Source: Candidatus Methylomirabilis limnetica (lineage in GTDB: Bacteria > Methylomirabilota > Methylomirabilia > Methylomirabilales > Methylomirabilaceae). Taken from it: a DNA stretch of 32,000 nt. The stretch spans positions 330,001 to 362,000 of the forward strand of contig NZ_NVQC01000022.1 in the NCBI RefSeq assembly GCF_003044035.1, written 5' to 3'. Each line of letters starts with the position of its first letter. Position 1 is the first letter of the stretch. This document shows positions 7,890 to 28,837 of the stretch, in pieces. The notes below the pieces were generated by a model that was not told where the DNA came from, did no database searches, and saw only the letters and a list, made by a program, of their open reading frames with translations. The position numbers were made by a program, and so were the translations under genes.

Positions 7890-9740
7890 TCATTTTCTAT
7901 CTCTGTTTTTGAGCACGGAGATCTCCTGACGGGTCGACAGGCGGCGGAGGTTGTCTTTCGCCTCCAGAAGGTCCGGCATGAGGCGCAACGCCTCTCGAAA
8001 CGCCGCCTCGGCCTCGGCCGGTTGGTCGCGGTTGGCCAACAGGACGCCGAGATTGTTGTGGGCGTAGGCGGCCGACCGCGGATGGGTCAGCGCCTGCTGA
8101 AACTGCGCCTCGGCCTCAGTTGCCTTGCCCTGCTTCAGGTAGACGGCTCCCAGCCACAGACGCGGAATAGTCTCCCGCGATCGCCCCGCAAGCGCTTTCT
8201 CCAGCTCCTCCTCGGCTCGGACCAGATCGCCCCGATCCATGAGCAGTTTGCCCAGGTTACCACGAGCCACCGTAAGGTCCGGCTGGATCGCCACGGCCGC
8301 CGCAAGCTGCTCCTCCGCTTGATTGAACTGACCTCGGCGTAGGTAGGCCGCCCCCAGGTTGTTCCGCGCCCTGGCCGACTCAGGGGCCGTCTGCACCGTC
8401 TTGCTCCACAGGGTCAGTTCGTCTTTCCAGTCGGCGTTGCGAACCACCGTACGGACAGCAAGGAGGCTGAGCACCAGGATGCAGGCGGTCGCAATAGCCG
8501 CGGATGGCCTGGGCCGGCTTAGTACCGGCTCGAGCAACCCCGCGACCAGCAACGCGAAGCCTACGGAAGGGACATACAGGAAGTGCTCGGCCATCAGGTC
8601 ATGGTGGGGGATAATCTGGGAGACGGGTAGTAAGGCGATCAGAAACCAGAGGCCGCCGAATGCCACCGGCGGCCGTTGGAGCAGCAAGCGGTACCAGGCT
8701 ACCCCCAGCCCTCCCCAGATCGCCACCGCCAACCAGGCGGTCGGGTCGGCCCAGGAGGTGGTTATGGAAAAGGCGTTATACGAGTAGTCGGCATTCAGCG
8801 TCATGGGGAACAGCAGAAGGGCGAGGTAGCGCAGGAAGACGCGCGCCATCGTCAACAGTGTCATCTCGAGACTGCCGCCATGCCACGCCCGCTGCGAGGT
8901 CCCCCGCACAAGGAACAGGACGTAGAAGGCCAGGGCGCCGGTCAGGACGCCGGCCGGAAGGTAAAACCATCGTCCCTCCCGGACCGCAGTAGACGCCGCC
9001 GACCAGATGGCTCGAATTCCTGAGACCTCGCCATCCGGCCCCGACCGCTTGATGCGGCTTACGACATCATAGCCGAGGCACAGCAGCGGCAGGATGATTC
9101 CGCTCTCTTTGGTGAAGAAGGCCAGAGGGCATAGCAGGATCGTCAGGACAAGATCCCGCACCCGACGAGACTGTCGATAACGCAGAAAACTGTAGAAACC
9201 GATCAGGACGAACAGGCCGGACAGGACATCCCGGCGTCCGGACAGATAGGTTACCGACTCGGTCTGAATCGGGTGGACCGCGAACAGCAGTGCGGCAAGG
9301 AGGGCCGGAAGCGGCGAGGCGAACAGGGTCCGGGCGATCAGGTAGACGCAGATTGCCGACAGACCATGCAGTGCCGTGTTGGTGAGGTGGTACCCCCACG
9401 GATCAAGGCCGGAGATGGCGTAATCCATGGCGTAGGAGGCGCTTCTAACGGGACGATAGGCCGACCGACCGCCCAGCAGCGCTTCGAGTTGCTGAAACGG
9501 TCCACTCCCTGGGCGGTGCAGTTCGACAATCGTTTCGAGATCATCGAACAGGAATTCGTTGTCGAAGCTGTTGGAGTAGACCACGCCGACCGCCACAAGC
9601 AGGATCAGCAGGGCGATCGACTGACGGCCGAGCCAGCCTTCAGCCGACGGCGGCTTCAGCCCAGTCCACTTACCCACTATCCCTCCCCGGCGGCGGTCAG
9701 TCGAGCGGAAGGCGACTCGGCGACCAGCTCTTCCCACCAT
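7890..9740 (-). CDS. TMTC/PMT-like GT-C membrane glycosyltransferase with C-terminal TPR repeats
   Basis: 616 aa. The first-loop motif is NSFDNEFLFDD, an acidic DD as in the PMT/TMTC/ArnT class. About 10 hydrophobic helices are followed by a TPR array (NNLGAAYLRRGQFNQAEEQL.., GNLGKLLMDRGDL.., NNLGVLLANRDQ..). It is a paralog of 11615-13633. ATG 9740 overlaps the upstream gene by 44 nt. Confidence 0.75.
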   Translation of the reverse strand: MVGRAGRRVAFRSTDRRRGGIVGKWTGLKPPSAEGWLGRQSIALLILLVAVGVVYSNSFDNEFLFDDLETIVELHRPGSGPFQQLEALLGGRSAYRPVRSASYAMDYAISGLDPWGYHLTNTALHGLSAICVYLIARTLFASPLPALLAALLFAVHPIQTESVTYLSGRRDVLSGLFVLIGFYSFLRYRQSRRVRDLVLTILLCPLAFFTKESGIILPLLCLGYDVVSRIKRSGPDGEVSGIRAIWSAASTAVREGRWFYLPAGVLTGALAFYVLFLVRGTSQRAWHGGSLEMTLLTMARVFLRYLALLLFPMTLNADYSYNAFSITTSWADPTAWLAVAIWGGLGVAWYRLLLQRPPVAFGGLWFLIALLPVSQIIPHHDLMAEHFLYVPSVGFALLVAGLLEPVLSRPRPSAAIATACILVLSLLAVRTVVRNADWKDELTLWSKTVQTAPESARARNNLGAAYLRRGQFNQAEEQLAAAVAIQPDLTVARGNLGKLLMDRGDLVRAEEELEKALAGRSRETIPRLWLGAVYLKQGKATEAEAQFQQALTHPRSAAYAHNNLGVLLANRDQPAEAEAAFREALRLMPDLLEAKDNLRRLSTRQEISVLKNRDRK

Positions 9741-11235
9741 CGGTAGATCGGCTCAGCGCAATCGGCTGATGCACCCGCACGCCATGATCCCAGGCCGCAA
9801 GGACAAGGTCGTTCTTGCCCGCACCAACTAACAGGTCCCTGCTTGTCGTCTGCCCGACCGTCGGCCCGCTCATGATGGCGGCCTGATCAGCCCAACGCTG
9901 CCCGTGATCCTCGGATCGATTCATCAGGACGAACCAACCGTACTTGGGACCAAAGGCATGCTCCTGCCAGACAAGCCAGAGGCGGCCGCCACCGTCATGC
10001 GCCAGCACAGCACCTTCAGGTCGGCCCTTCACCAGGCTCGTCCGTCCAAGCTCAGTAGGCGCTGCCCATGTGGCCCCGGAATCGGTGGAATGGAACACTA
10101 CCAGACGCCGAGTGGAAGTCCCCTCCGCCTCTATGAAGGCGATATATACATGCCCGCGCCCGTCGCAGACAATCTGAGCGGCAGCATTCTTGCGCCGTTG
10201 CAGCGACATGGGACTGGGCTGACTCAGGCGGATCGGCTGGCTCAACCAGGTCCGGCCGCCATCGAGAGAGCGGCTGAAGTAGATCATCCGGTCTACGAAC
10301 CATTCAGGTCGGCGTCGGCCCTGCAATCTGACAATTCGTTGCTCCGCCTGCTCCCAGATCAGATAGACCTGCCCGTCGGGCGCCGCGGCGATTCGCGGCG
10401 CATGGGAACCCCGAGAATCCACGCCAGGCCGGCTGACGAGGATCGGCTCGGACCAGGCCCGGCCATGGTCCTCCGACCGGCTCAGATAAATGCCGGCCTG
10501 TCGCCTCGGGCCCTTCGTGCCCTCTTCCCATACCGCATATAAATGGCCTTTGTCACCGGCGGCTAAGCTCGGATTGGTTATTCCTCTGTCTGACATCGAT
10601 AGGGCCGGCTGGATCCGCGCCGGATTCGGCGCGAATGTCCCGCCGGAATCCATGGAGGTGGCCACATCCAAAACCCGGCGAGACTCGTCCCCACCCAGCC
10701 AGGCCACGTACAGGGCGCCATCCGGACCGGCCTGCAGGTAAGGAGGGCCAAGATGGTCCCCAGCGGCCAGTTCACGAGGCGCCCCATCCCAGTGTCTCCC
10801 GCCATCCAGAGACCTGGCCACCAGGATGCGCGTGTCGGTCTTACCGGCGTTCCGTTCCCGCCAAGCCAGATACACCTGTCCCGTGGGGCCCGTGGCCAGC
10901 TTGATCCCCTCGGCGAACATGCCCTGTGCCGGTTTCCGGGACCACAACGGACCCGACCAGGTAGCGCCGCCATCCTCGGAACGCGAGAATCTGGTCTCCC
11001 AGTCCTTGCCCTCCTCGCCCGTCATCCAGACCAGGTATGCCTCGCCATGCACCCCCATGGCCATCTGGAGCGCCACCTGCTGAAATTTCGTAGGCGACTC
11101 CTCCGACGCCGTGAATTTCACGCCGGTGGGGGACGCCAACTCAGGGCCCGACGACAGCATGGCACACCCGGTGGTAACAGCCAGCACGAGCAGGAGCGCC
11201 GGTAGGCGAAATCGGCTTCGAGCAGTCACAGTCAT
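9697..11235 (-). CDS. BNR/Asp-box repeat beta-propeller lipoprotein
   Basis: There are eight S-x-D-x-G-x-x-W Asp-boxes: SEDGGATW, SLDGGRHW, SMDSGGTF, SEDHGRAW, SLDGGRTW, STDSGATW, SEDHGQRW and STDGGKSW. The N-terminus LLLVLAVTTGC is lipoprotein-like. A ggaggg Shine-Dalgarno precedes ATG 11235. Confidence 0.85.
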   Translation of the reverse strand: MTVTARSRFRLPALLLVLAVTTGCAMLSSGPELASPTGVKFTASEESPTKFQQVALQMAMGVHGEAYLVWMTGEEGKDWETRFSRSEDGGATWSGPLWSRKPAQGMFAEGIKLATGPTGQVYLAWRERNAGKTDTRILVARSLDGGRHWDGAPRELAAGDHLGPPYLQAGPDGALYVAWLGGDESRRVLDVATSMDSGGTFAPNPARIQPALSMSDRGITNPSLAAGDKGHLYAVWEEGTKGPRRQAGIYLSRSEDHGRAWSEPILVSRPGVDSRGSHAPRIAAAPDGQVYLIWEQAEQRIVRLQGRRRPEWFVDRMIYFSRSLDGGRTWLSQPIRLSQPSPMSLQRRKNAAAQIVCDGRGHVYIAFIEAEGTSTRRLVVFHSTDSGATWAAPTELGRTSLVKGRPEGAVLAHDGGGRLWLVWQEHAFGPKYGWFVLMNRSEDHGQRWADQAAIMSGPTVGQTTSRDLLVGAGKNDLVLAAWDHGVRVHQPIALSRSTDGGKSWSPSRLPLD

Positions 11236-11614: not shown

Positions 11615-13633
11615 TTAATCGGGAGGGGAAATCGGGGGAGAGTGGAGAATCGAATCAAGCAACTCGCGCGCCTCCGCCAGGTCGCCCTTCAGACTCAGCG
11701 CCTTCCTCAGGGAGGCCACGGCCCGACCCTGCTGCCCCTGCGCATGATAGACTTCCCCAAGCAGGTTATGAAGCTTCGGATCTGCGCCATTGTACCGGAC
11801 GGCCTCCTCTAACTCCAGTATCCCCGCTTGCATCTGCCCTTTCTCGAGATAGGCCAATCCCAGGTTTTGCCTGGCATCGGCGTAGCTGGGATCAAGGGCG
11901 ACCGCCTCTTTGAATGCCTGCTCAGCCTCAGCCGGCCGTTCCTGATTGGCGCGCACCATTCCCAGGTTGTTCAGCGCCCGCGCCCGCTGTGACGGCGACA
12001 GTTGCAGCGACGCCAGGGCTGCGAGGAGGTGCGCCTCGGCCTGTTTCACCTGCCCGCGCCTGAGGGAGACGACACCCAGGTTGATCCTGACATCAAGCGG
12101 CAGGGTCTTCAGGCGAAGCGCCGTGGTGAGGGCCTGCTCCGCTCCGTCCCAATTCCCCTGCTCAAGCAGCATCACACCCAGGTTATTCCAGGTCGCCGCA
12201 TCGTCCGGCATAATCCGGAGAGCCTCCCGAAACTCCCGGGCGGCCTCTTGGCGACGTCCTCGGATCATATACAGCCGGCCCAGGTTTCGGCGCGCCCTCG
12301 CCGATGCCGGGGCGGTCTGGACCGTCTTGGTCCAGAGTGTCAGGTCATCCTTCCAATCGCGGGTCCGAATGACCGTCCTGAATCCGAGCAGAAGCACCAC
12401 AAGCGCGAAGACGGCCAAGACAACCCGGCGCTGTCGGACACGCTCAAGCAGCCCTTCCACCAGCATGGCGGCTGCAAGACACAAGCCGATCGACGGCAAG
12501 TACAGATAGTGCTCGGCTACGATCTCATGATGGGGGATGATCTGGGCGACGGGCAGCAGTGTCATAAAGACCCAGAGGCCCCCGAATGCCGCCCACCGGT
12601 GGGAAGCCAGGAGCTGCCAGATCGCCCACCAGCTCCCGCCCACCACTGCGATTGCCATCAGGACCCGGCCATCCAAGAGGGTACCCGGCACCGGAAAGGC
12701 GTTGAAGGAGTAATCCGCGTTCAGGGTAACGGGCCAGAGCAGCAGTGTCAGGTAGTGACCCATGATCGTGACGCTGGTGAGCACTGTCGGCCAGAGTCCG
12801 CCGCCCCACAGGTCAAACCGTTGTGTGACGCGGAAGAGCACCACGAAGTAGTAGGCCACCGCGGAAAAGATCGCCCCGATCACCAGATAGAGGCACCTGT
12901 GCTCCCGCCAGAGCCGCCGTCCCGCCTCCCTGAGGGCCATCCAGGAACTCCATCCTCCCTCTCCGCCCTCGGGCATGGAGCGGACCAGATCATACCCGAG
13001 ACAGAGCAACGGGAGGGTGATCGCCATCTCCTTCGAGAGGAGGCCGAGACAGTACGAGATCCCGGTCAGGCACAGGAACCGCACCTTGCCGGTCGCCCGG
13101 TATCGGACGAATCCATAGAACCCCATCAGATAGAACAGGGTGAACAGGACATCCCGCCGGCCGGATATGTAGGCGACGGCCTCGGTCTGGACTGGGTGGA
13201 CGATAAAGAGCAGCGTCGCCAGGAAGGCGGGCCGGGTGATCCCCAGGATGGTCCGCAGCACGGTGAAAACCAGGACCCCGTTCAGGGCATGGTAGAGGAT
13301 GTTGAACGCCCGGAAACCCGACGGGTTGAGCCCGAACAGGGCATAGTCGATCGCGTACGAGGCGGTGCGAAGCGGGCGATACGAAAGCCATCCGCCGGAC
13401 CTGAATAACTGCGTGAGCCCCTCGATCGAGCGAAACCGGAGATCGGTCGCGACCAGTGGATGGTCGTCGAAGACAAAGCCGTTGAAAAGTGAACCGGCGT
13501 ACAGGAGTCCGGCCACCCCCACGATTACCAGACAAACCGCCACCGGGCGGGACCAGAATGAAAGCGGGCGATCAGGCACAGGCGCTAAAAAAAGACCCCC
13601 CTGGCCGGACGACCAGGGGGGTGGAGTGTACAT
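11615..13633 (-). CDS. TMTC/PMT-like GT-C membrane glycosyltransferase with C-terminal TPR repeats
   Basis: 672 aa. The first-loop motif is GSLFNGFVFDD, followed by a polytopic membrane domain and a long TPR array (RNLGRLYMIRGRRQEA.., NNLGVMLLEQGNWDGA.., NNLGMVRANQERPAEA.., QNLGLAYLEKGQMQ..). The ATG lies 6 nt after the stop of the collagen-like gene. Confidence 0.75.
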   Translation of the reverse strand: MYTPPPWSSGQGGLFLAPVPDRPLSFWSRPVAVCLVIVGVAGLLYAGSLFNGFVFDDHPLVATDLRFRSIEGLTQLFRSGGWLSYRPLRTASYAIDYALFGLNPSGFRAFNILYHALNGVLVFTVLRTILGITRPAFLATLLFIVHPVQTEAVAYISGRRDVLFTLFYLMGFYGFVRYRATGKVRFLCLTGISYCLGLLSKEMAITLPLLCLGYDLVRSMPEGGEGGWSSWMALREAGRRLWREHRCLYLVIGAIFSAVAYYFVVLFRVTQRFDLWGGGLWPTVLTSVTIMGHYLTLLLWPVTLNADYSFNAFPVPGTLLDGRVLMAIAVVGGSWWAIWQLLASHRWAAFGGLWVFMTLLPVAQIIPHHEIVAEHYLYLPSIGLCLAAAMLVEGLLERVRQRRVVLAVFALVVLLLGFRTVIRTRDWKDDLTLWTKTVQTAPASARARRNLGRLYMIRGRRQEAAREFREALRIMPDDAATWNNLGVMLLEQGNWDGAEQALTTALRLKTLPLDVRINLGVVSLRRGQVKQAEAHLLAALASLQLSPSQRARALNNLGMVRANQERPAEAEQAFKEAVALDPSYADARQNLGLAYLEKGQMQAGILELEEAVRYNGADPKLHNLLGEVYHAQGQQGRAVASLRKALSLKGDLAEARELLDSILHSPPISPPD

Positions 13634-13639: not shown

Positions 13640-14716
13640 CTAGGGCACCGTAGTCAGCAGGGACCAGGATCCTGGCGACACGGCCGGCGTTGTGCCAAGG
13701 GCCGTGTGTTCCACCGCTATCAAATCGGCTGCGGCAAACGTCACGTTGCTTGAGACGAGGCAGTTATCGACAGTATCAGAAATCGTACAGGTCAGCGTGG
13801 TAGCAGCCCCACCATTCCGGACAGTGAACTTACGACTCTGACTAGCACCAGGGCCAACTTTTAGCTTCACCCGCATGACGCTGACGGTGCTCGCAGGTAC
13901 AGGGACCGAGACGTCAGTCGATGCCACAGTACTATTGCCATTACCTGGACCCATCCAGCGAAGAGCGGTACCAAGGTCGGCTCCACCTGACCCGCCGGTC
14001 AGGAGACTCCTGACATTCGGTCCTGCTGGGCCAGTTGCACCTGTGGCGCCCGTGGCACCAGTTGCACCCGTGGCGCCTGTGGCGCCTGTTGAGCCTGTGG
14101 CACCTGTGCCACCTGCGGCACCTGTGGCGCCCGTGGCACCAGTTGCACCCGTGGCGCCTGTTGAGCCTGTTGAGCCTGTTGAGCCTGTGGCACCTGTTGA
14201 GCCTGTCGGTCCGGCTGGTCCTGTTGGTCCTGTTGCGCCAGTTGGTCCTGTCGGTCCGGCTGGTCCGGCTGGTCCGGCGGCGTCAAGGTTCTCACTCGCC
14301 GCTACCCCTGCCATGACAAGACTGCCGCTGAAGGCCCCCACAAAGGGGAAGAGACGCGCCGGGCTGCCCTGTAGCGCCACCTGCCCCTGGATGTTGATCC
14401 CCTCTACGGTGCTGGTCGTCAGGTGCCCGGTGCTGTCTACTGAGTAGCTACCGGTGATGTTAAAAGGCGTCGTCGCCCCCCCAACCTCTTTCATGGACCC
14501 TACTATCGCCACCGTACCCGGATTGGCGCAGGGACTTCCGGGAGTAAAAGTCAACGTCCCGAGAGCCTGGGTAGGGATTCCGGGCTCCACCATGGTGCTG
14601 AAGGAATAGATCCCCGAGAGACTGCAGGAATCGGCTGTCCAGCCGGGTGTAGGCAGGATCAGCACGGCCGCGGTGAGCAGGCCGGCTAGGACCGTACTCT
14701 TGGTTCGTGTACGCAT
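13640..14716 (-). CDS. Secreted collagen-like triple-helix repeat protein (G-X-Thr rich)
   Basis: The start is set to ATG 14716 ([22 protein letters not shown]..), which has an aagggg Shine-Dalgarno. The protein has a signal peptide, an N-terminal domain of about 140 aa, 29 uninterrupted G-X-Y triplets (GPA/GPT/GAT/GST) and a C-terminal domain of about 115 aa. Confidence 0.9.
14018..14275 (-). repeat. Coding tandem repeat (G-X-Y triplets, 9-nt periodicity)
   Basis: 258 nt of ggn-nnn-acn type codons. A 44-nt block is exactly duplicated 81 nt apart, at 14037-14080 and 14118-14161. Confidence 0.9.
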
Positions 14717-15405: not shown

Positions 15406-16368
15406 ATGAACTATCCGCCGCATCTGTCCGTCATCATCCCCCTCTTGAACGAGGCCGACGGTCTGCCGGAACTCTACCGGGAGCTCCAGGAGGCCCTCCG
15501 CCCATGGGCCAATCGCCATGAGCTGATCTTTGTGGATGACGGCAGCACGGACGGCTCATTTGCCGCGCTCGAAAAGCTCCACGCAGAAGACCCACGGGTG
15601 GTCGTCCTTCGCTTTCGCCGGAATCAGGGAAAGGCGAGCGCGTTGATGGCGGGGTTTCGCCGGGCGAGAGGAGAAATCCTGGTTACGCTCGACGCCGACC
15701 TGCAGGATGATCCGCGGGAAATCCCGCGATTTCTCGACAAGCTGGACGAGGGGTTCGATCTGGTGTCGGGATGGAAAGTCAAACGCCAGGACCCCATCAT
15801 CAGGCGGGTGCTCTCGCGGGTCTTCAACAGCGTCACGTCGCTGTTCACGGGACTCACGCTCCACGATTTTAATTGCGGCTTCAAATGCTATCGGAGGGGT
15901 GTGATCCAGGAGATCAGGCTCCACGGGGAGCTGCACCGGTTCATTCCGGCGTTGGCGAGTTGGCGGGGTTTCAGGATAGCGGAGATCGAGGTCGCACACC
16001 GGCCGCGGAAATACGGCCAGTCAAAATACGGCTCCGAACGGATCCCTCGCGGCTTCTTCGACCTGCTGACCGTCTTGATTCTGACCCGCTACCATCTGAG
16101 GCCACTTCACCTTTTCGGGGCCTTAGGAGCCCTGCTCAGTCTGGCAGGTTCCATCGGTCTAGCGTATCTGGTTTTCGGCTGGTTCTTCGGACAATGGATC
16201 GGTGACCGCCCCCTCCTCAGCCTCAGCATTCTGACGATGATCATCGGCCTACAGTTCATCTTTTTCGGACTCCTGGCCGAGATCATCGTCTACTCCAGCA
16301 GGCAAACCGACATCCCCCCGCTTGCCGCTGTCCTCGACCAGGACGACTCTCGCAAGGACATCGATTAA
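15406..16368 (+). CDS. GT2 polyprenyl-phosphate glycosyltransferase (DPM1/GtrB/ArnC-like)
   Basis: The start is set to ATG 15406 (MNYPPHLSVIIPLLNE). Motifs present are VDDGSTDGS and DADLQDDP (DXD). Two C-terminal TM helices (LHLFGALGALLSLAGSIGLAYLVFGWF; LLSLSILTMIIGLQFIFFGLLAEIIVY) match the GtrB/ArnC architecture. ATG 15361 is an alternative start. Confidence 0.85.
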   Translation: MNYPPHLSVIIPLLNEADGLPELYRELQEALRPWANRHELIFVDDGSTDGSFAALEKLHAEDPRVVVLRFRRNQGKASALMAGFRRARGEILVTLDADLQDDPREIPRFLDKLDEGFDLVSGWKVKRQDPIIRRVLSRVFNSVTSLFTGLTLHDFNCGFKCYRRGVIQEIRLHGELHRFIPALASWRGFRIAEIEVAHRPRKYGQSKYGSERIPRGFFDLLTVLILTRYHLRPLHLFGALGALLSLAGSIGLAYLVFGWFFGQWIGDRPLLSLSILTMIIGLQFIFFGLLAEIIVYSSRQTDIPPLAAVLDQDDSRKDID

Positions 16369-17125: not shown

Positions 17126-17576
17126 AGATGATCAACGATTGCCAAATCAGTAGATGGGCAGTCTCGAAGAATGACGGAAAATAGCGGCCGATATACATGA
17201 GACTGACCACTCTAATGAGGTTTAAAGAGAGGATCACTGATGCCCCCAGCAGAACCCCCTTGAGTTTCTCTGTCGCCCGACTTGGATAGGCCAGGACTGC
17301 TGACACGTAGATCGCCACGACAAAGATGCCGGTGCACACATCGTCGATCCGAGCCGCAAACCCCTCAACCTGGAGGATAGTTCCCGAAGTCGTGGCCTTG
17401 AGGGACAGGAGGTTCAGGACGAACCCGCTGACTGCGGCAAACGCCAGCGCCAGCGGCTGCCCGACAAGCTCCCGCATGATGCTTGTTCGTAGGAGCGTGT
17501 AAAACACGATGATGCACACCAGGAAGGTGATACATGCCCTGACCACTGGCTTATTTAGACTAAGTCGTTGCTCCAT
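17064..17576 (-). CDS. Exosortase/archaeosortase family protein, short form (XrtH-like)
   Basis: 170 aa with about 5 TM helices. The family signature residues occur in order: catalytic Cys in DDVCTGIF, Arg in LNLIRVVS and His in ETAHLLIWQ. An IPTLxxWG-like substrate is encoded in the same locus at 27938-28837. Confidence 0.8.
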   Translation of the reverse strand: MEQRLSLNKPVVRACITFLVCIIVFYTLLRTSIMRELVGQPLALAFAAVSGFVLNLLSLKATTSGTILQVEGFAARIDDVCTGIFVVAIYVSAVLAYPSRATEKLKGVLLGASVILSLNLIRVVSLMYIGRYFPSFFETAHLLIWQSLIIFAALLAWIYWTERFVGAPRH

Positions 17577-22164: not shown

Positions 22165-22914
22165 TCACCTCCTGGTCGCCTGGCGGCCCTTTATGCACAC
22201 CTGCAACCACAGTAGAAACAGGCTGCCGAAGCGATAGAGGCCCTCGTGGAGAAGGTTGAACCGGCTCTTTCGCCGATCGTCGCACCAGACCGGCACCTCA
22301 ACAATGACGGCGCCATCGCGTTGACCCCAAGCGATGAGTTGCAGGATATAGGCGCTCTGGTCGGCCAAATACGGGAGATATGGCCGTATGGAGTCGATCC
22401 GAAATGCCTTGGCGCCGATCGAGTAGTCCGTAAACTCGAGGTGAAGCAATCGGCGCGTGCAGGCGATGAATGCCGCGCTCGCCATGTGTCGGATCCGCGA
22501 GCGCTGCTGCCCCCCGGTCTGCTTGGAGCCGATGACGATGTCCGCCGTGTCGAGTGTTGCCGCTGCGGCCGTGATGAAGTCGAGATCGATGGTGAGGTCG
22601 AGATCGAGACACACCACCCGGTCATACTGCGCGCGCGTAATCCCGGCCTTGAATGCGCGGCCCACCCCGCGCTGCGGTAATTCAATCACTGTGAGGTCCG
22701 TACACCCCACCGCACATGCCCTGGCGATCTCGACGGTCCGGTCGGTCGAGCCATTGCTTATCAGGAGCAGTTCATACGCCGTAATCTCTCGGTCCTTCAG
22801 GCAGCGCCTGAGGCGGTCGACGTTGGCGGCAAGAATGGCTTCTTCGTTATACGCCGGGAGGATGAATGTCAGTGGAGCTCGGCGTTGGTGAGCATCACGC
22901 GAGTCTTGGGGCAT
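22165..22914 (-). CDS. GT2 family glycosyltransferase
   Basis: Motifs are LTFILPAYNEE, LISNGSTDRT and an acidic LDLDLTIDLD motif. The start is ATG, and the gene begins 9 nt after the radical SAM stop. Confidence 0.8.
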   Translation of the reverse strand: MPQDSRDAHQRRAPLTFILPAYNEEAILAANVDRLRRCLKDREITAYELLLISNGSTDRTVEIARACAVGCTDLTVIELPQRGVGRAFKAGITRAQYDRVVCLDLDLTIDLDFITAAAATLDTADIVIGSKQTGGQQRSRIRHMASAAFIACTRRLLHLEFTDYSIGAKAFRIDSIRPYLPYLADQSAYILQLIAWGQRDGAVIVEVPVWCDDRRKSRFNLLHEGLYRFGSLFLLWLQVCIKGRQATRR

Positions 22915-22923: not shown

Positions 22924-24282
22924 CTAGGAGAAGGCCGGTCGCACGTAGTCCCAGAACAGTGCGGCCTGTCGGCGCCAAAGGTGAAGGTCTACCCGGCGAA
23001 TCCTGGACCAGAGCACCGCCGGTCGCAGGTAGAACTCGCGGAAGGCCCGGTCGGCGACGGCCTGAAGGAGACGGGGATCGTGCTCCTTGCTCAGCACGTC
23101 GGGGAACAGTTCCGAGGCGCCGCTCATCTCGTACAGCGTCGTGCCCAGGTAGGGAGTCACGGCATGAAACGACGCATAGGTTGGGTTCAGTCGCTTGGCA
23201 AATGCGATTGTCGCCTCCATATCCTCGGCGGTCTCTCCCGGAAAGCCGAACATGAAGAAACAGACCTGATCGATTCCTGACTGCTTCGTCTCTGCAATTC
23301 CCCGTTCGATCTGCTCAAGAGTAATCCGCTTGTTAGTTTCGGCAAGAATTCTGGCTGAACCGCTTTCCACGCCGAAGTGGATGAGCCGACAGCCGGCCCG
23401 CTTCATCAATTGCAGAAGCGGCCCGTCCACATAATCGGCCCTGGTCTGGCACGCCCACTCGAAGGATAACTTCGCTGACGCCAGTCGTTCACAGAGATCC
23501 CAGACGTCGTCGCGGACCGCAGTAAACTCGAGATCGATGAAGTAGCCTGTCTCGGCTCCTGCCTCTCGAACCAGATACGTCACCTCACGGATAACCTGCT
23601 CAGGATCTTTCTTACGGTAGCCTTTGCCGTACATCTTGAGGAGGCAGAAAGAACATCGATAGTGACAACCGCGCGTCGCTTCAAGTAGGGCAAACCTGCC
23701 GCCGAGGACTTCGTAACGGTAGTTGCGGAGGTCGAGGAGATGAAAAGCGGGCAGTGGCAGGGTTGTCAGATCTATGGGGTTTCCTTCCGGGGTATTGATG
23801 AGCGTGCCCCCTTGCAGATAGCTAATACCCGGCACCTCGGAAGGATCTTTGCCATCACAGAGCGCTCGGACCGCCAGTTCAGGCTCACCACGGATCACGG
23901 CCCGCGCCCGCGTCATGTTGAGAAGTTCGCCAGGCGCAACGGTCCCATGTGTCCCCATGACGTACAGCTTGTCGGGTTCTACCAGATGTGTAACGGCCAG
24001 GAATGGGCTGAGATCAAGGTTGGGGCATTGCCACCGATCAATCGGCGCTGAGGTGATAAACACCAGATCGTGCTGCGTCGCGGCGTCTCGAATCGCATCG
24101 AGTGGGGTGGGCGTGGCGCGGGCATCGATGATGCTGGCGCTATGTCCATCCTGTTCCAGCAGTGCCGCGCAGTTCAGCAGGTCAAGGGGAGGCCATGTCC
24201 GATTGAACCGGCGTCCTTTTCGGCTTACCAGCCCGTCCCAGCTCGGATTGACCAGCAGGACTTTCAGTCGCCTTCCCGCCAT
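22924..24282 (-). CDS. B12-binding domain radical SAM protein (class B)
   Basis: The N-terminus KVLLVNPSW.. has a Rossmann-like cobalamin-binding domain layout. The radical SAM cluster motif is present as ATRGCHYRCSFC (CxxxCxxC). Confidence 0.85.
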   Translation of the reverse strand: MAGRRLKVLLVNPSWDGLVSRKGRRFNRTWPPLDLLNCAALLEQDGHSASIIDARATPTPLDAIRDAATQHDLVFITSAPIDRWQCPNLDLSPFLAVTHLVEPDKLYVMGTHGTVAPGELLNMTRARAVIRGEPELAVRALCDGKDPSEVPGISYLQGGTLINTPEGNPIDLTTLPLPAFHLLDLRNYRYEVLGGRFALLEATRGCHYRCSFCLLKMYGKGYRKKDPEQVIREVTYLVREAGAETGYFIDLEFTAVRDDVWDLCERLASAKLSFEWACQTRADYVDGPLLQLMKRAGCRLIHFGVESGSARILAETNKRITLEQIERGIAETKQSGIDQVCFFMFGFPGETAEDMEATIAFAKRLNPTYASFHAVTPYLGTTLYEMSGASELFPDVLSKEHDPRLLQAVADRAFREFYLRPAVLWSRIRRVDLHLWRRQAALFWDYVRPAFS

Positions 24283-24388
24283 ACTGAGATCACCTTATCC
24301 CATCATGCTAATAATTTATTCTGAAATCTCCCTTTACCCCTCTTTGCCAAAGAGGGGATTTATTCCTCCCTTTGGAAAAGGGAGGTTA

Positions 24389-25684
24389 GGCAGTGTAAAT
24401 AAATAAAGGTATCAACTTCGCTCTGTAGCTTTTGGTCTTATGACGTAGTTCCAGTCGCCATGAAACTTATTACGTTCCACATTGATGCGCTTCATCTCTT
24501 CATCGCTAACCTTGCGTCCGGTTGGATATTTCCGGCGATCCAATCTACACGTCACTTTCAGCCCCTTCGCCGTGGTCGTCCTGGCGATGAGATTGACGAT
24601 CGTTTCGTAATCCCGCAACGGTTCACCACGCCAATTTGACGTGATAAAGGAAAACAGCCGGTGTTCGATCTTGTTCCATTTGCTGGTGCCGGGAGGAAAA
24701 TGACAGACGGAAAGGCACATGCCGGTTTGATCAGCAAACTTCTGCAACTCCAACTTCCAAAGCCGCAACCGCGACCCATTGCTCCCCCCGCCGTCGGCAG
24801 TGATCAGAAGCGTTGCCGTATCCGGATACAGCCGTCGTCCTTCAAAATGCCACCACCCGCGAATCGAGGCCACGGCAAATTCTCCAGTGTCATGGTCGGT
24901 CCCCACATTGACAAAACCGGCGTTGCGTCCGAGGTCGTAAATACCATACGGATAGGCGCGTGGCACTTCTGGGCTGGGGAAGTCGTGACCTTGAACTTTT
25001 TTGGGCTGCTTTGCCGGAAGCCATTGCTGACCGGCATTGTTGTAGTTGCCGATGAGTTCCTTCTTTTTTGTGTCCACCGAAATCACAGGAATGCCTTGCG
25101 CCAGGCGTCTCTTTACCGCAGCATTGATGTGCCGAAATTGCGCATCGCGGTCGGGGTGGTCTGTGCCCTCCTCGGTCTTCCGATTGCTCTGCAGACTATA
25201 GTTCAGATCGTGAAGAATCTGCGCGACCTTTGCATGGCTGACCGGGTGCTTGTTCCTGCCAAGCTGCCTGGCAATCGCCCGCGTGCTTTTACAAATCCAT
25301 CGCAGGGGGGACTGTGGATCGCCTCGCGTTTGGCCATCAATCATCTCTTCCAATGCATCCAACAGACGTGGGTCGGAAACGGTGATGGACTTGCGCCCTG
25401 CTCCGGGACAACGGATGCGACCTTCCGATGGCACTATCCCTTCTTGAATTTCGCGGACTCCTTTGGCGATGGCCCGTCGCGACAATCCACACGCGCGATG
25501 CACCACAGAGATTCCACCAAAGCCCAAACTCACGGCTTCATTAGCAGCCATGATGCGGCGCGTGCGCTCGTCCAAAAGCGGCCACACAGAACGAAACTTC
25601 CGTCTCAACTCGGGCAGGGTGTTCATGCTCAAGAAGCATACCACCACAACTCATAGATTGATACCTTTATTTATTTACACTGCC
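24389..25684 (-). mobile_element. ISAzo13-family insertion sequence (1296 bp)
   Basis: Perfect 27-bp terminal inverted repeats ggcagtgtaaataaataaaggtatcaa lie at 24389-24415 and, as reverse complement, at 25658-25684. They are flanked by the direct repeat TTA (24386-24388 and 25685-25687). The element holds a single transposase ORF. Confidence 0.9.
24412..25626 (-). CDS. ISAzo13 family (Rhodopirellula-type DDE) transposase
   Basis: The start is set to ATG 25626 (MNTLPELRRKF..). The N-terminal LDERTRR..AANEA..LG.GGIS......G.SR..I..G..E and the C-terminal DDE region (SVDTKKKE, ITADGGGSN, HFPPGTSKWNKIEHRLF) fit this family. Confidence 0.88.
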   Translation of the reverse strand: MNTLPELRRKFRSVWPLLDERTRRIMAANEAVSLGFGGISVVHRACGLSRRAIAKGVREIQEGIVPSEGRIRCPGAGRKSITVSDPRLLDALEEMIDGQTRGDPQSPLRWICKSTRAIARQLGRNKHPVSHAKVAQILHDLNYSLQSNRKTEEGTDHPDRDAQFRHINAAVKRRLAQGIPVISVDTKKKELIGNYNNAGQQWLPAKQPKKVQGHDFPSPEVPRAYPYGIYDLGRNAGFVNVGTDHDTGEFAVASIRGWWHFEGRRLYPDTATLLITADGGGSNGSRLRLWKLELQKFADQTGMCLSVCHFPPGTSKWNKIEHRLFSFITSNWRGEPLRDYETIVNLIARTTTAKGLKVTCRLDRRKYPTGRKVSDEEMKRINVERNKFHGDWNYVIRPKATERS

Positions 25685-27859
25685 TTAGGAGGGATTTTCT
25701 AAGGAACTGTATCTTTTCCTCGAAAGAAATACAAGCGTTTCAGCGAGGAGCAACGCGATTCCGGCCGCTGTGGCAACCCGTCCAACATAATCAGGCCAGC
25801 GATTGCCGAAGACGAGCCGGACCTGCTTGGCCGTGGGATAGACCAGCATGAATGATGGTGACACCAGATAGATCCGATCGGCGCCCTCAACGCGCCATTT
25901 CGGGTGATACGAGACCTTGATCAGGTGCGGGCGACCAGGGCACTCGGTCTCAAACCGAACCTCCTCATTGCCCAAGGCGTCTTTCACGTGGCATTCGGGC
26001 GAAAGGACCTGTTTAACGGGCTCCTCCATTAAGTCACGAAACGGCACGACTCCCGGCGGTACCGGATCGCCGGGTCGTGGGAAAAGGAGCGGTACCTCCA
26101 GCCATTCCGGTTTTTGGAACCAGTCATAAGCGAGTCGTTTCCAGTCGCCATCGGTCACGAGGGCAGGCTGGTATCGAAGCGGTACAACATACTGGCCGTT
26201 GCCTTGACGGACCTGGAAGATCTTGTAGGGTCCGATTTCCCCCTCCTCGCGGTACCCAGGATTCGACCCCAGGGCAGCCTTCACCCTATCCGTGACGGCA
26301 ATCACCTCTTTGACGTTGAACAGCTCCAAATGGGCGAGTGCCCGCTCCGGGTCGAATGGCGAACATTTGTAGGGAACGAAGGGACAAGAAGGAGTGTCCG
26401 TTAGTTCAGACTGGATGTAGAACACGAACGGGGAGGTCGGAGAGGACTGCATGTAGGCCCCTTCGAGCGTTGGGCGGCCCGATATAAGGGGGAGAGCCTC
26501 AAAAGCCCTGATCGTACCGGCCTTATCATGGAGAACCGAATGTTGGTACACGACTCTGGGACTGTGGGGGCCGCCTGGTAGCGCAATAGAATTCACGACA
26601 ATAAAGTATCGCCACCACGGTGTCTGCTCCATTCCGGAAAAATTCCACTGGATCCATTTGGGGATAAACGACACCTGAGGCATGACCCAGGCGATAGTCA
26701 TCACGGCGATGACGACAGGCGCCGCTCGCCAGAGTGAACGCGGTAGCCGCATCAGAAGTCCACCGAGACCGGCTGCGGCCAAGAGGACGAGAAAAAACTG
26801 CGCAAAGGCCAGGAACCTGACATCTACAAGGTTCAGCCAGGGTGAAACAAAATACAGGGTGACCGATAGCACCACAGGGTAGGTCAGGTAGTAGATCATC
26901 CGAAGCCATCCCTTGTCGCTAAATTTCCCCCGCAGTGTCAAGGCTACTGTGACCGCCGCAATGACGATGATGGGCCATAGCACGACCGGAACGATCTCCA
27001 GGATAGATGTAAACTCCCAGGTAATGGAGAACCCGGTAGTGTAAGGAAGGTACCAGACGAGCGGAATCAACCAGAATCCCAGCAGCAGCCCGCCCACAGC
27101 ATACACCCGCACCAGGTACAGGAGCGTCATCCGGAACTCCGAGGTCACAGCAAGGAAGTACAGCCCCATACCCGCCGCCATCACCATCCCGTATCCGTGC
27201 GCTAATCCGGTAAGGGCGAAGAGTACGGCACACCAGCCTGCGTACCGCCGCTCAAGGACGCCTCGGTACAGTGCACCCATGAATAATACGAGGAGCGTAA
27301 GTGAGAGGCTGTGAGAAAACTCGCCGGCCAGCGTGCTCGGAATGTTTCCACCCCACATGCTGTTGCCTGCGTTCAGCAGGAATGGAAGGGTCAGAACGGC
27401 GCCAAGCGCAGGAATGGGGAACGGACATCCGATCCAGCGGAGCGCAACGAGGGAGGCGATCGGGAGCCCGAAGGTTCCGGCGATAGTCCCCAGCTTAAAT
27501 GCAATAGGGAATGAGACGACAAGACTGAACCCGGCGATCAGCAGGAAGGCAAGGGGAAAATAGAAAAGGAAGAGGGGATAGCCGGCGAGGTTGCCCGGCA
27601 TCCAGCCAATAAGCTTTCCATTAGGCAAGAGGTAATCCCGCAGATATCTTGCCGCGACATAGTGTGCGATGGTGTCGCCACCGCCAGTGATAGTCGGCTT
27701 GAAAAGGAGGGAGGGTTTAAGGTACCAGAGAAGGAGTCCGTAGGTCAGCAGGAGGGCCAAGAGCGTGCTCACTCTCTCAACCCATCCGGGATATCTTCCC
27801 GTTGGAACTGCGTCGGGTTCGGCGGAGGCTGTACGTACAGATTCGCGAACGTCCAGCAT
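25685..27859 (-). CDS. Large polytopic membrane protein with C-terminal extracytoplasmic domain (GT-C / YfhO / PTPS-related-like, unconfirmed)
   Basis: The start is set to ATG 27859, because the ORF-track TTG 27877 lies inside the upstream terminator stem. About 13 TM helices begin with GGDTIAHY in the first loop. A soluble domain of about 300 aa and a final TM follow. The last codons and the stop derive from a family-B repeat. Confidence 0.6.
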   Translation of the reverse strand: MLDVRESVRTASAEPDAVPTGRYPGWVERVSTLLALLLTYGLLLWYLKPSLLFKPTITGGGDTIAHYVAARYLRDYLLPNGKLIGWMPGNLAGYPLFLFYFPLAFLLIAGFSLVVSFPIAFKLGTIAGTFGLPIASLVALRWIGCPFPIPALGAVLTLPFLLNAGNSMWGGNIPSTLAGEFSHSLSLTLLVLFMGALYRGVLERRYAGWCAVLFALTGLAHGYGMVMAAGMGLYFLAVTSEFRMTLLYLVRVYAVGGLLLGFWLIPLVWYLPYTTGFSITWEFTSILEIVPVVLWPIIVIAAVTVALTLRGKFSDKGWLRMIYYLTYPVVLSVTLYFVSPWLNLVDVRFLAFAQFFLVLLAAAGLGGLLMRLPRSLWRAAPVVIAVMTIAWVMPQVSFIPKWIQWNFSGMEQTPWWRYFIVVNSIALPGGPHSPRVVYQHSVLHDKAGTIRAFEALPLISGRPTLEGAYMQSSPTSPFVFYIQSELTDTPSCPFVPYKCSPFDPERALAHLELFNVKEVIAVTDRVKAALGSNPGYREEGEIGPYKIFQVRQGNGQYVVPLRYQPALVTDGDWKRLAYDWFQKPEWLEVPLLFPRPGDPVPPGVVPFRDLMEEPVKQVLSPECHVKDALGNEEVRFETECPGRPHLIKVSYHPKWRVEGADRIYLVSPSFMLVYPTAKQVRLVFGNRWPDYVGRVATAAGIALLLAETLVFLSRKRYSSLENPS

Positions 27860-27868
27860 GACCGCTCC

Positions 27869-27904
27869 AAAAAGCAAGAACGGGGCTTAACGCCCCGTTC
27901 TTGC
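27869..27904 (-). terminator. Rho-independent terminator of the 27938-28837 gene
   Basis: On the minus strand, the stem gcaagaacgggg / ccccgttcttgc with a ~7-nt loop is followed by TTTTT. It lies about 35 nt after the stop. Confidence 0.75.
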
Positions 27905-27937: not shown

Positions 27938-28837
27938 TTACTGCAGGTGATTTCTTCGAGCTCTCACCATCCAAGCCATCGCACCCAGGAACGCCGCTCC
28001 CAACACCATCATTCCCCAGTTACCGACCGTCGGGACCACCGGAATCGTCGTCGTGGTGGTCGTCGTGGTCGTCGTGGTCGTCGTGGTGGTGGTTACCGTA
28101 ACGCTGGTGGTATCAGAATCGCCTGTGGCGTTATCAACAAGGCTGCCAGCTGCGACGTCGAAGCCCGCGCCGCCGCCGGATACGTTCAGCGTCCCTGCGG
28201 TGTTCGGGGTGATGAACGAATTCCCATTATAGACAAAGAGGATGCCCTGGTTCAGACTCAAGCTGATCCCGTCGACAGGCTGTGCGGCAGCATCAGCAAT
28301 CGAACACGTGGCGGTTCCCCCAAACCCATACACGCTGTCGCCACAATTCACGTTGTTCGTGATGCTGGCGACAGGGGCGAGCGCGCTGATCAGTGTCAGG
28401 CCGGCATCACCGAATCCAGCCACCGTGGTGGCGCCAGAGGCCCATGACCCGGCACCAGTGGCAGAGAAGGTCACGGCGGGCGTGCAGGCGGCCAGCGACA
28501 GGGTCCCGGTCCGCTTCCCCTGAGCCAGAGCGGTAAGAGGGGTCGCCGGTACCTTGGCAATCAGGGTAGTCCCGCTGCTGACGGTTTGAACCACCGTCGC
28601 CGCAGAATTGAAGGCGATAGACATTGAGACGTTGGTCAGACGGTCATGATCGGTCCCAGCCGGCTGTGCATCCGAACAGAGGTACTGATAGACGGTTCCA
28701 TCGCTGGCAATGTCGATGCGCTGCTGCACCCGTGCATCGACACTCATCGGGGCGATAACCGTTCCCGCAAGGATCGCGGGGGCCAGCAGAGACAGAGCCA
28801 ACTTCTTGCTGAAAGCAACTCTTGCTCTAGAACTCAT
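27938..28837 (-). CDS. Secreted protein with poly-Thr linker and IPTLxxWG-CTERM-like sorting signal
   Basis: A ggaggag Shine-Dalgarno precedes ATG 28837, and the signal peptide ends SVDA. The mature domain is about 200 aa and Ala/Thr/Gly-rich. It is followed by 16 consecutive Thr codons (28046-28093), then IPVVPTVGNWGMMVLGAAFLGAMAWMVRARRNHLQ: a motif, a TM helix and a basic cluster. Confidence 0.85.
   Translation of the reverse strand: MSSRARVAFSKKLALSLLAPAILAGTVIAPMSVDARVQQRIDIASDGTVYQYLCSDAQPAGTDHDRLTNVSMSIAFNSAATVVQTVSSGTTLIAKVPATPLTALAQGKRTGTLSLAACTPAVTFSATGAGSWASGATTVAGFGDAGLTLISALAPVASITNNVNCGDSVYGFGGTATCSIADAAAQPVDGISLSLNQGILFVYNGNSFITPNTAGTLNVSGGGAGFDVAAGSLVDNATGDSDTTSVTVTTTTTTTTTTTTTTTTIPVVPTVGNWGMMVLGAAFLGAMAWMVRARRNHLQ

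Follow-up and report, generated by a model that had tools for sequence, protein, structure and literature searches.

The window analysed here is a stretch of 32,000 nt from Candidatus Methylomirabilis limnetica (contig NZ_NVQC01000022.1 of assembly GCF_003044035.1, forward-strand positions 330,001-362,000), whose open reading frames (ORFs) were listed and then scanned against Pfam and NCBIfam. It very probably holds the surface-layer (S-layer) and exosortase H (XrtH) locus of M. limnetica, in which a gene for an S-layer protein ortholog and a gene for an exosortase lie among genes for several sugar transferases. A preliminary description, made from the sequence alone, had proposed for positions 7890-28837 a periplasmic, lipid-linked machinery for protein O-glycosylation coupled to exosortase sorting, and the genes that it listed were all recovered, at or near the coordinates it gave, in the ORF listing and the family scans. 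The NCBIfam cut-offs that apply below are 86 bits for TIGR04177, 20.5 for TIGR04174 and 312 for PrsT, and the Pfam cut-offs are 26.1 bits for PMT_2 and 27 each for TMTC_DUF1736 and DUF6056. The S-layer protein, the predicted sortase and its partner are encoded as follows.

27938..28837, minus strand: S-layer protein ortholog, 299 aa (signal peptide, ~210-aa domain, 16-Thr linker, and IPTL-CTERM signal made up of motif, transmembrane (TM) helix and Arg cluster)
17064..17576, minus strand: exosortase H (XrtH), short form, IPTL-CTERM-specific (TIGR04177, 91.5 bits)
16451..17125, minus strand: exosortase-H-associated membrane protein (likely true start near 17080)

The S-layer of M. lanthanidiphila is built of one 316-aa protein, mela_00855, that begins with a signal peptide and ends in an IPTL-CTERM, and for which a hexagonal surface lattice has been demonstrated (Gambelli et al., 2021, PMC8671808). 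The 299-aa protein of the window is 35% identical to mela_00855 over residues 1-298 (E 3e-21), and the aligned part takes in the poly-Thr run and, after it, (I/V)P(T/V)VGxWG, the TM helix and the Arg cluster. The M. lanthanidiphila gene sits between the genes for a GT4-family glycosyltransferase and a PTPS_related protein, a few kb from XrtH; the 299-aa gene holds the matching position, between the genes for the GT4-family transferase and a 301-aa protein on one side and PTPS_related on the other. Because the two proteins align end to end and their genes occupy the same place, the 299-aa protein is orthologous to the S-layer protein. The tail of the 299-aa protein, in which a TM helix separates IPVVPTVGNWG from RARRNH, scores 25.5 bits with TIGR04174 (IPTL-CTERM), while the linker is an uninterrupted run of Thr whose length, 16, is exactly that counted in the preliminary description. 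The family of the folded domain is very small: among 1.84 billion proteins it has only 8 representative clusters.

The short exosortase seen earlier in this DNA is exosortase H by its family match, and its residues Cys81, Arg122 and His141 are invariant in an alignment of 10 diverse homologs. All of its nearest relatives belong to Methylomirabilis or Methylomirabilota. For comparison, 80 XrtH loci were assembled from one genome per species scanned, spanning Acidobacteriota, Ignavibacteriales, Planctomycetota, Burkholderiales, Binatia and others, with one long locus (L013) and two contigs of less than 4 kb from the phylum NC10 (Methylomirabilota). The partner gene adjoins XrtH in 57 of the 80, across phyla, and the partner's orthologs carry a precomputed Pfam XrtH_assoc match that is marked weak. 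XrtH and IPTL-CTERM are a curated family pair (TIGR04177 / TIGR04174), and by family the exosortase and the Thr-linker protein are thus a predicted enzyme-substrate pair. We know of no exosortase H that has been studied experimentally.

The cluster is kept in syntenic order in six NC10 genomes, so that the conservation of gene neighbourhood for which the preliminary description had asked is present. In five further NC10 genomes or contigs the order is GT4-family transferase, 301-aa secreted protein, S-layer protein, PTPS_related protein, class-B (B12) radical SAM enzyme (B12-rSAM), family 2 glycosyltransferase (GT2), a variable slot, XrtH, XrtH partner, (Tat-signal protein), BNR protein, TMTC-like protein, ArnC-like GT2, lipoprotein and 443-aa secreted protein. 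The variable slot is occupied by a 502-aa PMT_2 protein in M. lanthanidiphila, by a PA14 membrane protein and a DPMS-like GT2 in the window and in locus L094, and is otherwise empty. Since every gene of the shared order is found in the window, the conserved locus extends from about 3267 to 31774; the range given earlier, 7890-28837, stopped short of both ends. The earlier inventory had also missed the BNR gene, an ISAzo13 element, the XrtH partner and the IPTL-CTERM signal. This order holds among NC10 members whose XrtH proteins are just 67-82% identical, and NC10-like metagenome loci retain the TMTC-like gene, the ArnC-like GT2 and XrtH together even though XrtH there has diverged to as little as about 90 bits.

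In four of these metagenome loci (L120, L129, L152 and L153), the neighbours are as close to those of the window as true NC10 orthologs are (TMTC-like protein 420-484 bits; GT4-family transferase, where present, at most 717 bits), while XrtH (86-106 bits) and its partner (38-45 bits) are far more divergent. This suggests, from the scores, a sortase pair that was replaced or is fast-evolving inside a conserved locus.

Glycosyltransferase modules

The transferase genes of the locus, with the B12-rSAM gene that accompanies them, are listed below.

7890..9740, minus strand: TMTC-like GT-C glycosyltransferase A (PMT_2 43.8 bits; TMTC_DUF1736 24.2 bits, below 27; TPR; DD, YRP, RRD and KE motifs)
11615..13633, minus strand: TMTC-like GT-C glycosyltransferase B (PMT_2 33.0 bits; TMTC_DUF1736 22.7 bits, below 27; strong TPR)
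15406..16368, plus strand: ArnC/GtrB-type GT2, polyprenyl-phosphate sugar synthase (E 4e-56 to ArnC in the PDB over residues 6-294 of 320; NF007986 204 bits)
25685..27877, minus strand: PTPS_related glycosyltransferase with predicted GT-C fold (PF10131 121.7 bits), immediately downstream of the S-layer gene
22165..22914, minus strand: soluble GT2, partner of PTPS_related (Glycos_transf_2 76.4 bits; best solved relatives ArnC and GtrB; no TM helix)
22924..24282, minus strand: class-B (B12) radical SAM enzyme (Radical_SAM 88.7 bits; HpnJ, BchE and other B12-rSAM models below their cut-offs)
19446..22061, minus strand: PA14 polytopic membrane protein (two PA14 domains, 80.9 bits; periplasmic domain; identical, at 100%, to M. 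limnetica CLG94_08990)
18737..19495, minus strand: soluble DPMS/PpgS-type GT2 (DPMS 5mlz E 5e-16, also ArnC and GtrB; no TM helix; 50-bp overlap with the PA14 gene)

These genes form three modules, each of which pairs a polytopic membrane protein with a cytoplasmic GT2 of the polyprenyl-phosphate-sugar-synthase type. The first joins the TMTC-like protein to the ArnC-like GT2, whose genes overlap or abut in the NC10 loci L093-L095. The second consists of the PTPS_related protein, its GT2 and the B12-rSAM enzyme, a trio present in every NC10 locus that covers the region, and the third of the PA14 membrane protein and the DPMS-like GT2, overlapping in the window and paired in the same way in L094.

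Both TMTC-like proteins combine a multi-TM domain with a C-terminal TPR array, which is matched by multiple TPR families (E down to 1e-29) and is predicted from the topology to be periplasmic. Seven NC10 sequences were aligned and compared with motifs M1-M7 of human TMTC1-4 (Eisenhaber, 2021, PMC7801869). M1 (DD, in loop 1), M2 (YRP), M3 (RxD) and M4 (KE) are invariant; M5 is D-Y instead of D-W and M7 is E-H-x-x-Y instead of E-R-x-x-Y, while the PxxP of M6 is not retained and P-x5-P stands there. A related bacterial protein in locus L161 reaches 27.3 bits with TMTC_DUF1736. By profile and motifs both proteins are therefore assigned to the GT-C enzymes, and the catalytic-loop homology on which the preliminary description had made its proposal depend is present, with DD, YRP, RxD and KE intact. 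A sequence search of the TMTC-B membrane domain against the PDB gave no match, a result expected for GT-C proteins at the single-sequence level and thus uninformative. The ArnC-like GT2, for which a two-TM tail had been described, indeed has two C-terminal TM helices and is a full-length ArnC/GtrB homolog; GtrB and DPMS structures are matched as well, with ArnC as the closest solved relative. The GT2 at 18737-19495, earlier likened to ALG5, is of the polyprenyl-phosphate-sugar-synthase type, with DPMS, ArnC and GtrB as its best solved relatives.

For the PTPS_related protein, an AlphaFold model (mean predicted local distance difference test score, pLDDT, 86.2) gave 17 top Foldseek matches in the PDB that are all GT-C proteins, among them AftD (E 4e-8), PglB, STT3, ArnT, AftA, AglB and Pmt4 (probability 1.0, TM score 0.35-0.51), and a GGD after the first TM helix is invariant. 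On this model the protein has a GT-C fold. Up to four GT-C proteins had been suggested for this DNA, and the suggestion stands for PTPS_related and the two TMTC-like proteins.

Side observations on this family extend beyond NC10. The PTPS_related/rSAM/GT2 trio recurs in a deltaproteobacterial locus, L179 (603, 335 and 125+85 bits), and the PTPS_related and GT2 pair recurs in an archaeal-like contig, L178, that has class I LysRS and Cdc6 nearby. L178 clusters PTPS_related, PMT_2 and DUF2079 GT-C genes with small soluble GT2s, an EamA-like small membrane protein and an epimerase, forming a multi-GT-C array like that of the window. Outside NC10, most close homologs of PTPS_related (P0311-P0346) bear a C-terminal TPR (and YfiO-like) extension; in them the GT-C plus TPR architecture of the TMTC proteins was acquired independently.

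The PA14 protein shows 7-8 TM segments by hydropathy and about 12-13 helices in its AlphaFold model (pLDDT 87.8), which has the GT-C-like layout of a first TM helix, two short loop helices and a periplasmic domain. Among the 50 matches listed by the fold search, only PA14-type or beta-sandwich structures occur, and a profile search against the PDB matched PA14 alone. DUF6056 scores 20.2 bits against a cut-off of 27; among 36 homologs, 3 match DUF6056 and 1 matches DUF2079, all weakly. Comparison by hhalign with the PTPS_related and TMTC profiles was negative, and since the control comparison of PTPS_related with TMTC was equally negative, the method has no power here. Two of three distant homologs of the PA14 family have no sugar-related neighbours.

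Probable periplasmic glycosylation and its proposed acceptor

Taken as a whole, the window would encode an S-layer biogenesis locus with lipid-linked glycosylation of a Thr-rich protein acceptor, a statement to which we give even chances. Its parts are held with different firmness. Periplasmic lipid-linked glycosylation by GT2/GT-C pairs is likely, and in this respect the earlier claim of an extracytoplasmic machinery of the polyprenyl-phosphate-sugar type, with GT2 synthases paired with GT-C enzymes, is borne out. That the Thr-rich proteins are the acceptor is a closer question, which we place a little on the doubtful side of even; the membrane sugar-transferases probably, but not provably, decorate the Thr-rich stalk of the S-layer protein. 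As a tentative generalization, bacterial TMTC-like GT-C/TPR enzymes, each with a dedicated polyprenyl-phosphate sugar synthase, might be periplasmic protein O-glycosyltransferases for low-complexity Thr tracts, which in Methylomirabilis would glycosylate the S-layer stalk before cleavage by XrtH.

In such a pathway each GT2 would load a sugar onto undecaprenyl phosphate, and the lipid-sugar would be flipped by a flippase encoded outside the locus. The S-layer protein would be exported by Sec and kept in the inner membrane via its C-terminal helix, where the TMTC-like GT-C would engage it through the periplasmic TPR array and move the sugar to Thr residues of the stalk, acting in M. limnetica also on a G-X-Thr collagen-like protein. 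The PTPS_related and PA14 enzymes would add or extend sugars, with the PA14 domains binding the growing glycan, and the B12-radical SAM enzyme would tailor the sugar. Finally, exosortase H would cleave at the IPTL motif and hand the protein on for surface attachment.

Support for a protein acceptor comes from the TPR arrays, since these are protein-binding modules and the closest characterised relatives of the TMTC-like enzymes O-mannosylate proteins. It also comes from the neighbouring genes, which include, next to the S-layer gene already described, a second gene for a Thr-rich secreted protein.

13640..14716, minus strand: secreted collagen-like protein, candidate acceptor (Collagen Pfam 45.3 bits; 23 G-X-Thr triplets in a 29-triplet run)

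The count of 23 G-X-Thr triplets agrees with that made earlier. The collagen-like gene lies directly upstream of TMTC-B, 6 bp apart, and in L100, from a second species, an intact collagen-like homolog is directly upstream of a TMTC-B ortholog that is 60% identical. In every NC10 locus that has both, PTPS_related directly follows the S-layer gene, in the window after 60 bp. Poly-Thr secreted proteins, defined by at least 9 Thr in 12 residues, were found in 9 of the 79 loci of a TMTC-anchored metagenome set (0.72 Mb), and in the 1.2 Mb of XrtH-anchored controls only the NC10 S-layer protein qualified. The nine loci comprise one clade with a conserved gene pair (TMTC-like proteins 50-73% identical, GC content 38-53%) and the unrelated L138 and L161; in L161 poly-Thr proteins occur alongside a TMTC-like gene, an ArnC-like GT2 and other glycosyltransferases. 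In L142, a protein with a signal peptide and a long poly-Thr linker is encoded immediately upstream of the TMTC-like gene. Altogether, such adjacency of genes for Thr-rich secreted proteins and TMTC-like genes is seen in NC10 and in no fewer than three lineages besides. As for the collagen-like repeat, the G-X-Thr repeats of BclA are O-glycosylated (PMC6222408).

Some further observations concern these proteins themselves. In the clade of L137, L139, L142, L143, L163, L165 and L171, the secreted protein beside the TMTC-like gene carries a domain rich in Cys and a long poly-Thr linker, and its C-terminal ~100 aa (motif IEV..D/S..WKSRWVALP) form a domain common to the clade. In L101 (1614-2700) the collagen-like gene is frameshifted within its G-X-Thr repeat, which is probably an assembly error or repeat-length variation, the gene being intact in the near-identical L100. 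The collagen-like protein was also considered as a conserved core member of the locus or as an XrtH substrate. Both roles were rejected: the protein occurs only in the species of the window and one close relative, being absent from L011, L013 and L093-L095, and it has no C-terminal sorting signal.

Several points weigh against a glycosylated protein stalk. No glycans were seen on mela_00855, of which everything except the C-terminal tail was covered, and preliminary gel staining, according to the same authors, also argued against glycosylation (PMC8671808). The uncovered tail is exactly the poly-Thr stretch, and the protein migrated at about 90 kDa instead of 31.6 kDa (PMC8671808); the earlier statement that unmodified Thr-rich proteins would contradict the proposal thus applies in part, to the body of the orthologous S-layer protein only. 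The PA14 and BNR domains are carbohydrate-directed, and where a GT-C enzyme has a carbohydrate-binding module, glycans are its usual target (PMC11127046). The PA14 protein itself is GT-C-like in its model, and a GT-C fold could not be demonstrated for it. No GtrA, SMR or MATE flippase was found in the window, which has no further multi-TM ORF of at least 70 aa. Most TMTC-like genes of other lineages stand alone in the 79 metagenome loci, and both the sugar and the acceptor are entirely inferred.

A further adverse point is that the XrtH loci of other phyla are essentially without glycosyltransferase neighbours in the 80-locus scan, so that glycosylation is not a general requirement for sorting. 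The only locus in which the window's GT2, GT-C and rSAM genes all have homologs is L013, from NC10; outside NC10 the same scan yielded one ArnC-like GT2, on a Binatia contig, and one rSAM gene, and no more. IPTL-CTERM proteins near XrtH in other phyla lack a Thr-rich linker (Ser+Thr fraction at most 0.25, vs 0.57-0.65 in NC10). In favour of the proposal, on the other hand, the poly-Thr stalk is confined to the lineage that has glycosyltransferase genes beside XrtH. A general coupling of exosortase H to glycosylation was rejected, since 57 of 80 loci have the partner and essentially none outside NC10 has GT2, GT-C or rSAM genes. The coupling that the preliminary description had put forward holds within NC10 synteny and is absent from XrtH loci elsewhere: with these genes beside XrtH essentially only in NC10, it is a property of the Methylomirabilota S-layer locus, robust within that lineage, and not general to XrtH.

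An alternative that we regard as rather unlikely, though not negligibly so, is that the GT2/GT-C modules modify a non-protein periplasmic acceptor, such as lipid A, lipopolysaccharide core, O-antigen or another envelope glycan, on which the S-layer would dock, with the poly-Thr run serving as a spacer. S-layers anchored in comparable ways exist: in Caulobacter RsaA attaches to O-antigen, and secondary cell-wall polymers serve as docking sites for SLH proteins. Three-component systems of the ArnC/ArnT and GtrB/GtrV type act on lipid A and O-antigen (PMC11127046), and the closest solved relative of the ArnC-like GT2 is ArnC. The tandem PA14 domains and the conserved BNR/sialidase-like protein point to glycan recognition, the orthologous S-layer protein showed no glycans outside its uncovered tail, and the window has the GT4-family transferase and M. 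lanthanidiphila a UDP-sugar dehydrogenase at the locus edge. However, the protein-binding TPR arrays are hard to place in such a scheme, the motifs are those of protein O-mannosyltransferases and not ArnT-specific, and Thr-rich secreted-protein genes adjoin TMTC-like genes in several lineages. Moreover, the DNA covered, namely the window, the ~10 kb to its right and, in five other NC10 genomes, ~2-10 kb to either side of XrtH, gave no Pfam or NCBIfam match to Wzx, Wzy, Wza, Wzc or a priming transferase, and the locus and its surroundings are to that extent free of genes that assemble or export O-antigen or another polysaccharide. This agrees with the earlier remark that polysaccharide genes should not sit just outside the window: the ~10 kb to the right hold toxin-antitoxin genes, and the other NC10 stretches are clean. 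The hallmarks of S-layer-glycan (slg) clusters, namely a priming phosphoglycosyltransferase, a Wzx or ABC exporter and a Wzy_C-type O-oligosaccharyltransferase, likewise had no Pfam or NCBIfam match in the window, the flanks examined or the orthologous loci.

It is improbable that the GT-C enzymes constitute a general periplasmic protein O-glycosylation system, like Pmt/Ppm1 of Actinobacteria, whose proximity to the S-layer and exosortase genes is an accident of this lineage. The PTPS_related/GT2/rSAM module and TMTC-like genes are indeed widespread without XrtH or S-layer genes, XrtH is widespread without glycosyltransferases, and the region is rich in insertion sequence (IS) elements and repeats. 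An accident is nonetheless difficult to reconcile with a gene order that persists at 67-82% XrtH identity and in loci with a much more divergent XrtH, or with the tight spacing of the S-layer gene and PTPS_related (60 bp) and of the collagen-like gene and TMTC-B (6 bp). That the locus serves exopolysaccharide or floc formation in the manner of PEP-CTERM/EpsH systems, with assembly genes elsewhere, is scarcely credible and was rejected on the family assignments. Such a role would fit an exosortase that stands beside many glycosyltransferases, and the TPR proteins match PrsT, of the XrtA system, below threshold. Yet these matches reach 71-81 bits vs 312, the exosortase is the short XrtH and not XrtA/EpsH, the signal is IPTL-CTERM and not PEP-CTERM, and the assembly genes named above were missing from all stretches covered. 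The preferred reading is that of an S-layer locus in which the stalk of the sorted protein would be glycosylated.

Related systems and significance

The closest system for comparison is the locus of M. lanthanidiphila, with which that of M. limnetica shares the GT4-family transferase, PTPS_related, rSAM, GT2, XrtH, BNR, TMTC-like and ArnC-like GT2 genes, and the succession of signal peptide, poly-Thr and IPTL-CTERM in the S-layer protein. Compared with it, M. limnetica has in addition the collagen-like G-X-Thr gene, the PA14 protein with the DPMS-like GT2, which take the place of the 502-aa PMT_2 protein, a second TMTC-like paralog, differently arranged, and the IS insertion. The published account of M. 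lanthanidiphila mentions IPTL-CTERM and three neighbouring sugar genes, mela_00856 (the GT4-family transferase) being mentioned there, and not the exosortase or the GT-C set (PMC8671808). The preliminary description had taken the combination for an undescribed system. This needs to be narrowed, as the S-layer protein, its IPTL-CTERM and the nearby sugar genes were known (PMC8671808), while the literature searched yielded no description of XrtH inside this S-layer locus, of three GT2/membrane-transferase modules that include TMTC-like enzymes, of the conserved PTPS_related/GT2/B12-rSAM module, or of the recurrent adjacency of bacterial TMTC-like genes and Thr-tract secreted proteins.

With exosortase H/IPTL-CTERM systems in general, the locus has in common a short exosortase with a Cys/Arg/His triad, a partner membrane protein and a substrate with a tripartite signal; those of other phyla are without a poly-Thr stalk or glycosyltransferases, whereas here the pair is embedded in an S-layer/glycosylation cluster. 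A parallel in another domain of life is the haloarchaeal S-layer glycoprotein, which has a Thr-rich, O-glycosylated stalk and a PGF-CTERM processed by archaeosortase A (ArtA) (PMC6098224). Both are S-layer subunits with a Thr-rich stretch beside a C-terminal tripartite signal and an exosortase-family enzyme. In contrast, the sortase subfamily and the motif differ, and glycosylation is proven in the haloarchaea, whereas we infer it here. Components of the archaeal pathway for S-layer O-glycosylation "have not yet been identified" (PMC6098224), and Thr/Ser-rich regions next to exosortase or archaeosortase signals had earlier been proposed to be O-glycosylated (bioRxiv 10.1101/2023.06.07.544157; PMC6098224).

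Eukaryotic TMTC1-4 (CAZy GT105) and PMT share with the bacterial proteins a multi-TM GT-C domain followed by luminal or periplasmic TPR, the motifs DD, (S/A)YRP, RxD and KE, and a lipid-phosphate sugar donor supplied by a DPMS-type GT2. The NC10 proteins differ from TMTC1-4 in having ~10 predicted TM helices vs 11, DY for DW, EHxxY for ERxxY and no PxxP, with DUF1736 below its cut-off, and their acceptors would be low-complexity Thr tracts, not cadherin domains. In the three-component systems GtrA/GtrB/GtrV, ArnC/ArnEF/ArnT and CsbB/GtcA/YfhO, a GT2 and a GT-C act at the outer face of the inner membrane (PMC11127046). The locus resembles these in that a polyprenyl-phosphate sugar GT2 would work with a GT-C; it differs in the lack of a flippase gene in the window, in the clustering of three pairs, and in the proposed protein acceptor vs their glycan or lipid acceptors. 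BclA of Bacillus anthracis is glycosylated by cytoplasmic nucleotide-sugar-dependent enzymes in the context of a Gram-positive spore, whereas the enzyme encoded next to the collagen-like gene is a predicted periplasmic GT-C. The two share collagen-like G-X-Thr triplets, which on BclA carry O-glycans at Thr (PMC6222408).

If TMTC-like enzymes O-glycosylate Thr tracts, they would be the first enzyme set for the O-glycosylation postulated next to exosortase and archaeosortase signals, and this would be the first function for prokaryotic TMTC homologs. The locus makes testable which enzymes glycosylate Thr/Ser-rich stalks before such signals, as well as the role of the many homologs that the human TMTC O-mannosyltransferases have in prokaryotes, and it points to a recurring design in which each GT-C has its own small GT2 donor synthase. 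It also bears on the migration of the M. lanthanidiphila protein at ~90 vs 31.6 kDa and on the escape of its hydrophilic C-terminal tail from proteomics (PMC8671808). Were the acceptor an envelope glycan, the locus would still define how an unusual polygonal S-layer is anchored.

Other genes, repeats and mobile elements

The remaining features of the conserved locus, together with one protein gene particular to the window and the insertion sequence, are the following.

3267..4598, minus strand: 443-aa secreted protein, distal locus member (paralog of the 301-aa protein at 29687-30592; no Pfam family)
5052..5678, minus strand: 208-aa predicted lipoprotein, conserved (signal sequence followed by Cys, ...LLLVGCAGP)
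5789..6958, minus strand: 389-aa protein with twin-arginine translocation (Tat) signal, conserved (TRREFL motif; no Pfam family)
9697..11235, minus strand: BNR/sialidase-like beta-propeller with N-terminal anchor (BNR_2 83.3 bits), directly upstream of the TMTC-like gene
17877..18383, minus strand: 168-aa secreted protein (no family match)
24388..25685, minus strand: ISAzo13-family insertion sequence (transposase 24412-25647; NF033519 577 bits; perfect 28-bp terminal inverted repeats), not part of the system
29687..30592, plus strand: 301-aa secreted protein, divergent from the S-layer gene, conserved (no significant family; L093 ortholog 408 bits)
30647..31774, plus strand: GT4-family (GT-B fold; Glycos_transf_1) cytoplasmic glycosyltransferase at the locus edge (Glyco_trans_1_4 100 bits; equivalent of mela_00856)

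The 443-aa protein has phmmer matches in syntenic position in L013, L093, L094 and L095 and in NC10-like metagenome loci, in seven of which it co-occurs with the lipoprotein and the Tat protein. The 389-aa Tat protein is 44% identical (E 6e-106) to the product of the gene that follows the XrtH partner in L093, and orthologs of the GT4-family transferase are present in L011, L093 and L095. The BNR gene adjoins the TMTC-like gene in L011, L013 and L093-L095, and a BNR gene occurs in 19 of the 79 metagenome loci, mostly next to a TMTC-like gene. For the 168-aa secreted protein, phmmer found no match in the other NC10 loci.

The ISAzo13 element follows directly after the PTPS_related stop codon and splits this gene from the rSAM-GT2 pair. 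It is absent from the matching position in L011, L013 and L093, and PTPS_related, rSAM and GT2 are contiguous in the other NC10 genomes; in M. limnetica the insertion may uncouple transcription of PTPS_related from that of rSAM-GT2.

The S-layer locus lies in a region rich in mobile elements. An IS110-family transposase gene and a DUF559 endonuclease-like gene are located in the window, at 1388-2746 and 7111-7530, and toxin-antitoxin pairs (PIN/VapB, PemK, ParE, Phd) lie just to its right (L001 11339-19713). Two copies of a compound palindromic element of ~175 nt, inverted relative to each other and 94-95% identical, lie at 11388-11559 and 29130-29302, one upstream of the BNR gene and the other upstream of the 301-aa protein gene, in like orientation to each. 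The element has no Rfam match, an Rfam scan of the window having found nothing, and could be a miniature inverted-repeat transposable element (MITE) or a regulatory leader common to the two genes. Several families of short palindromic repeats, GC-rich and intergenic, e.g. GTCATTGCGAGCG...GGCAATC and CCCCTCTTTGGAAAAGAGGGG, resemble repetitive extragenic palindromic (REP) sequences or MITEs and are found at ~100, 913, 1007, 3059, 4798, 4920, 5679, 7132, 7547-7656, 15000-15312, 16371-16435, 18583, 24324-24390 and 29462, where they yield spurious small ORFs with PLFGKEG-like translations.

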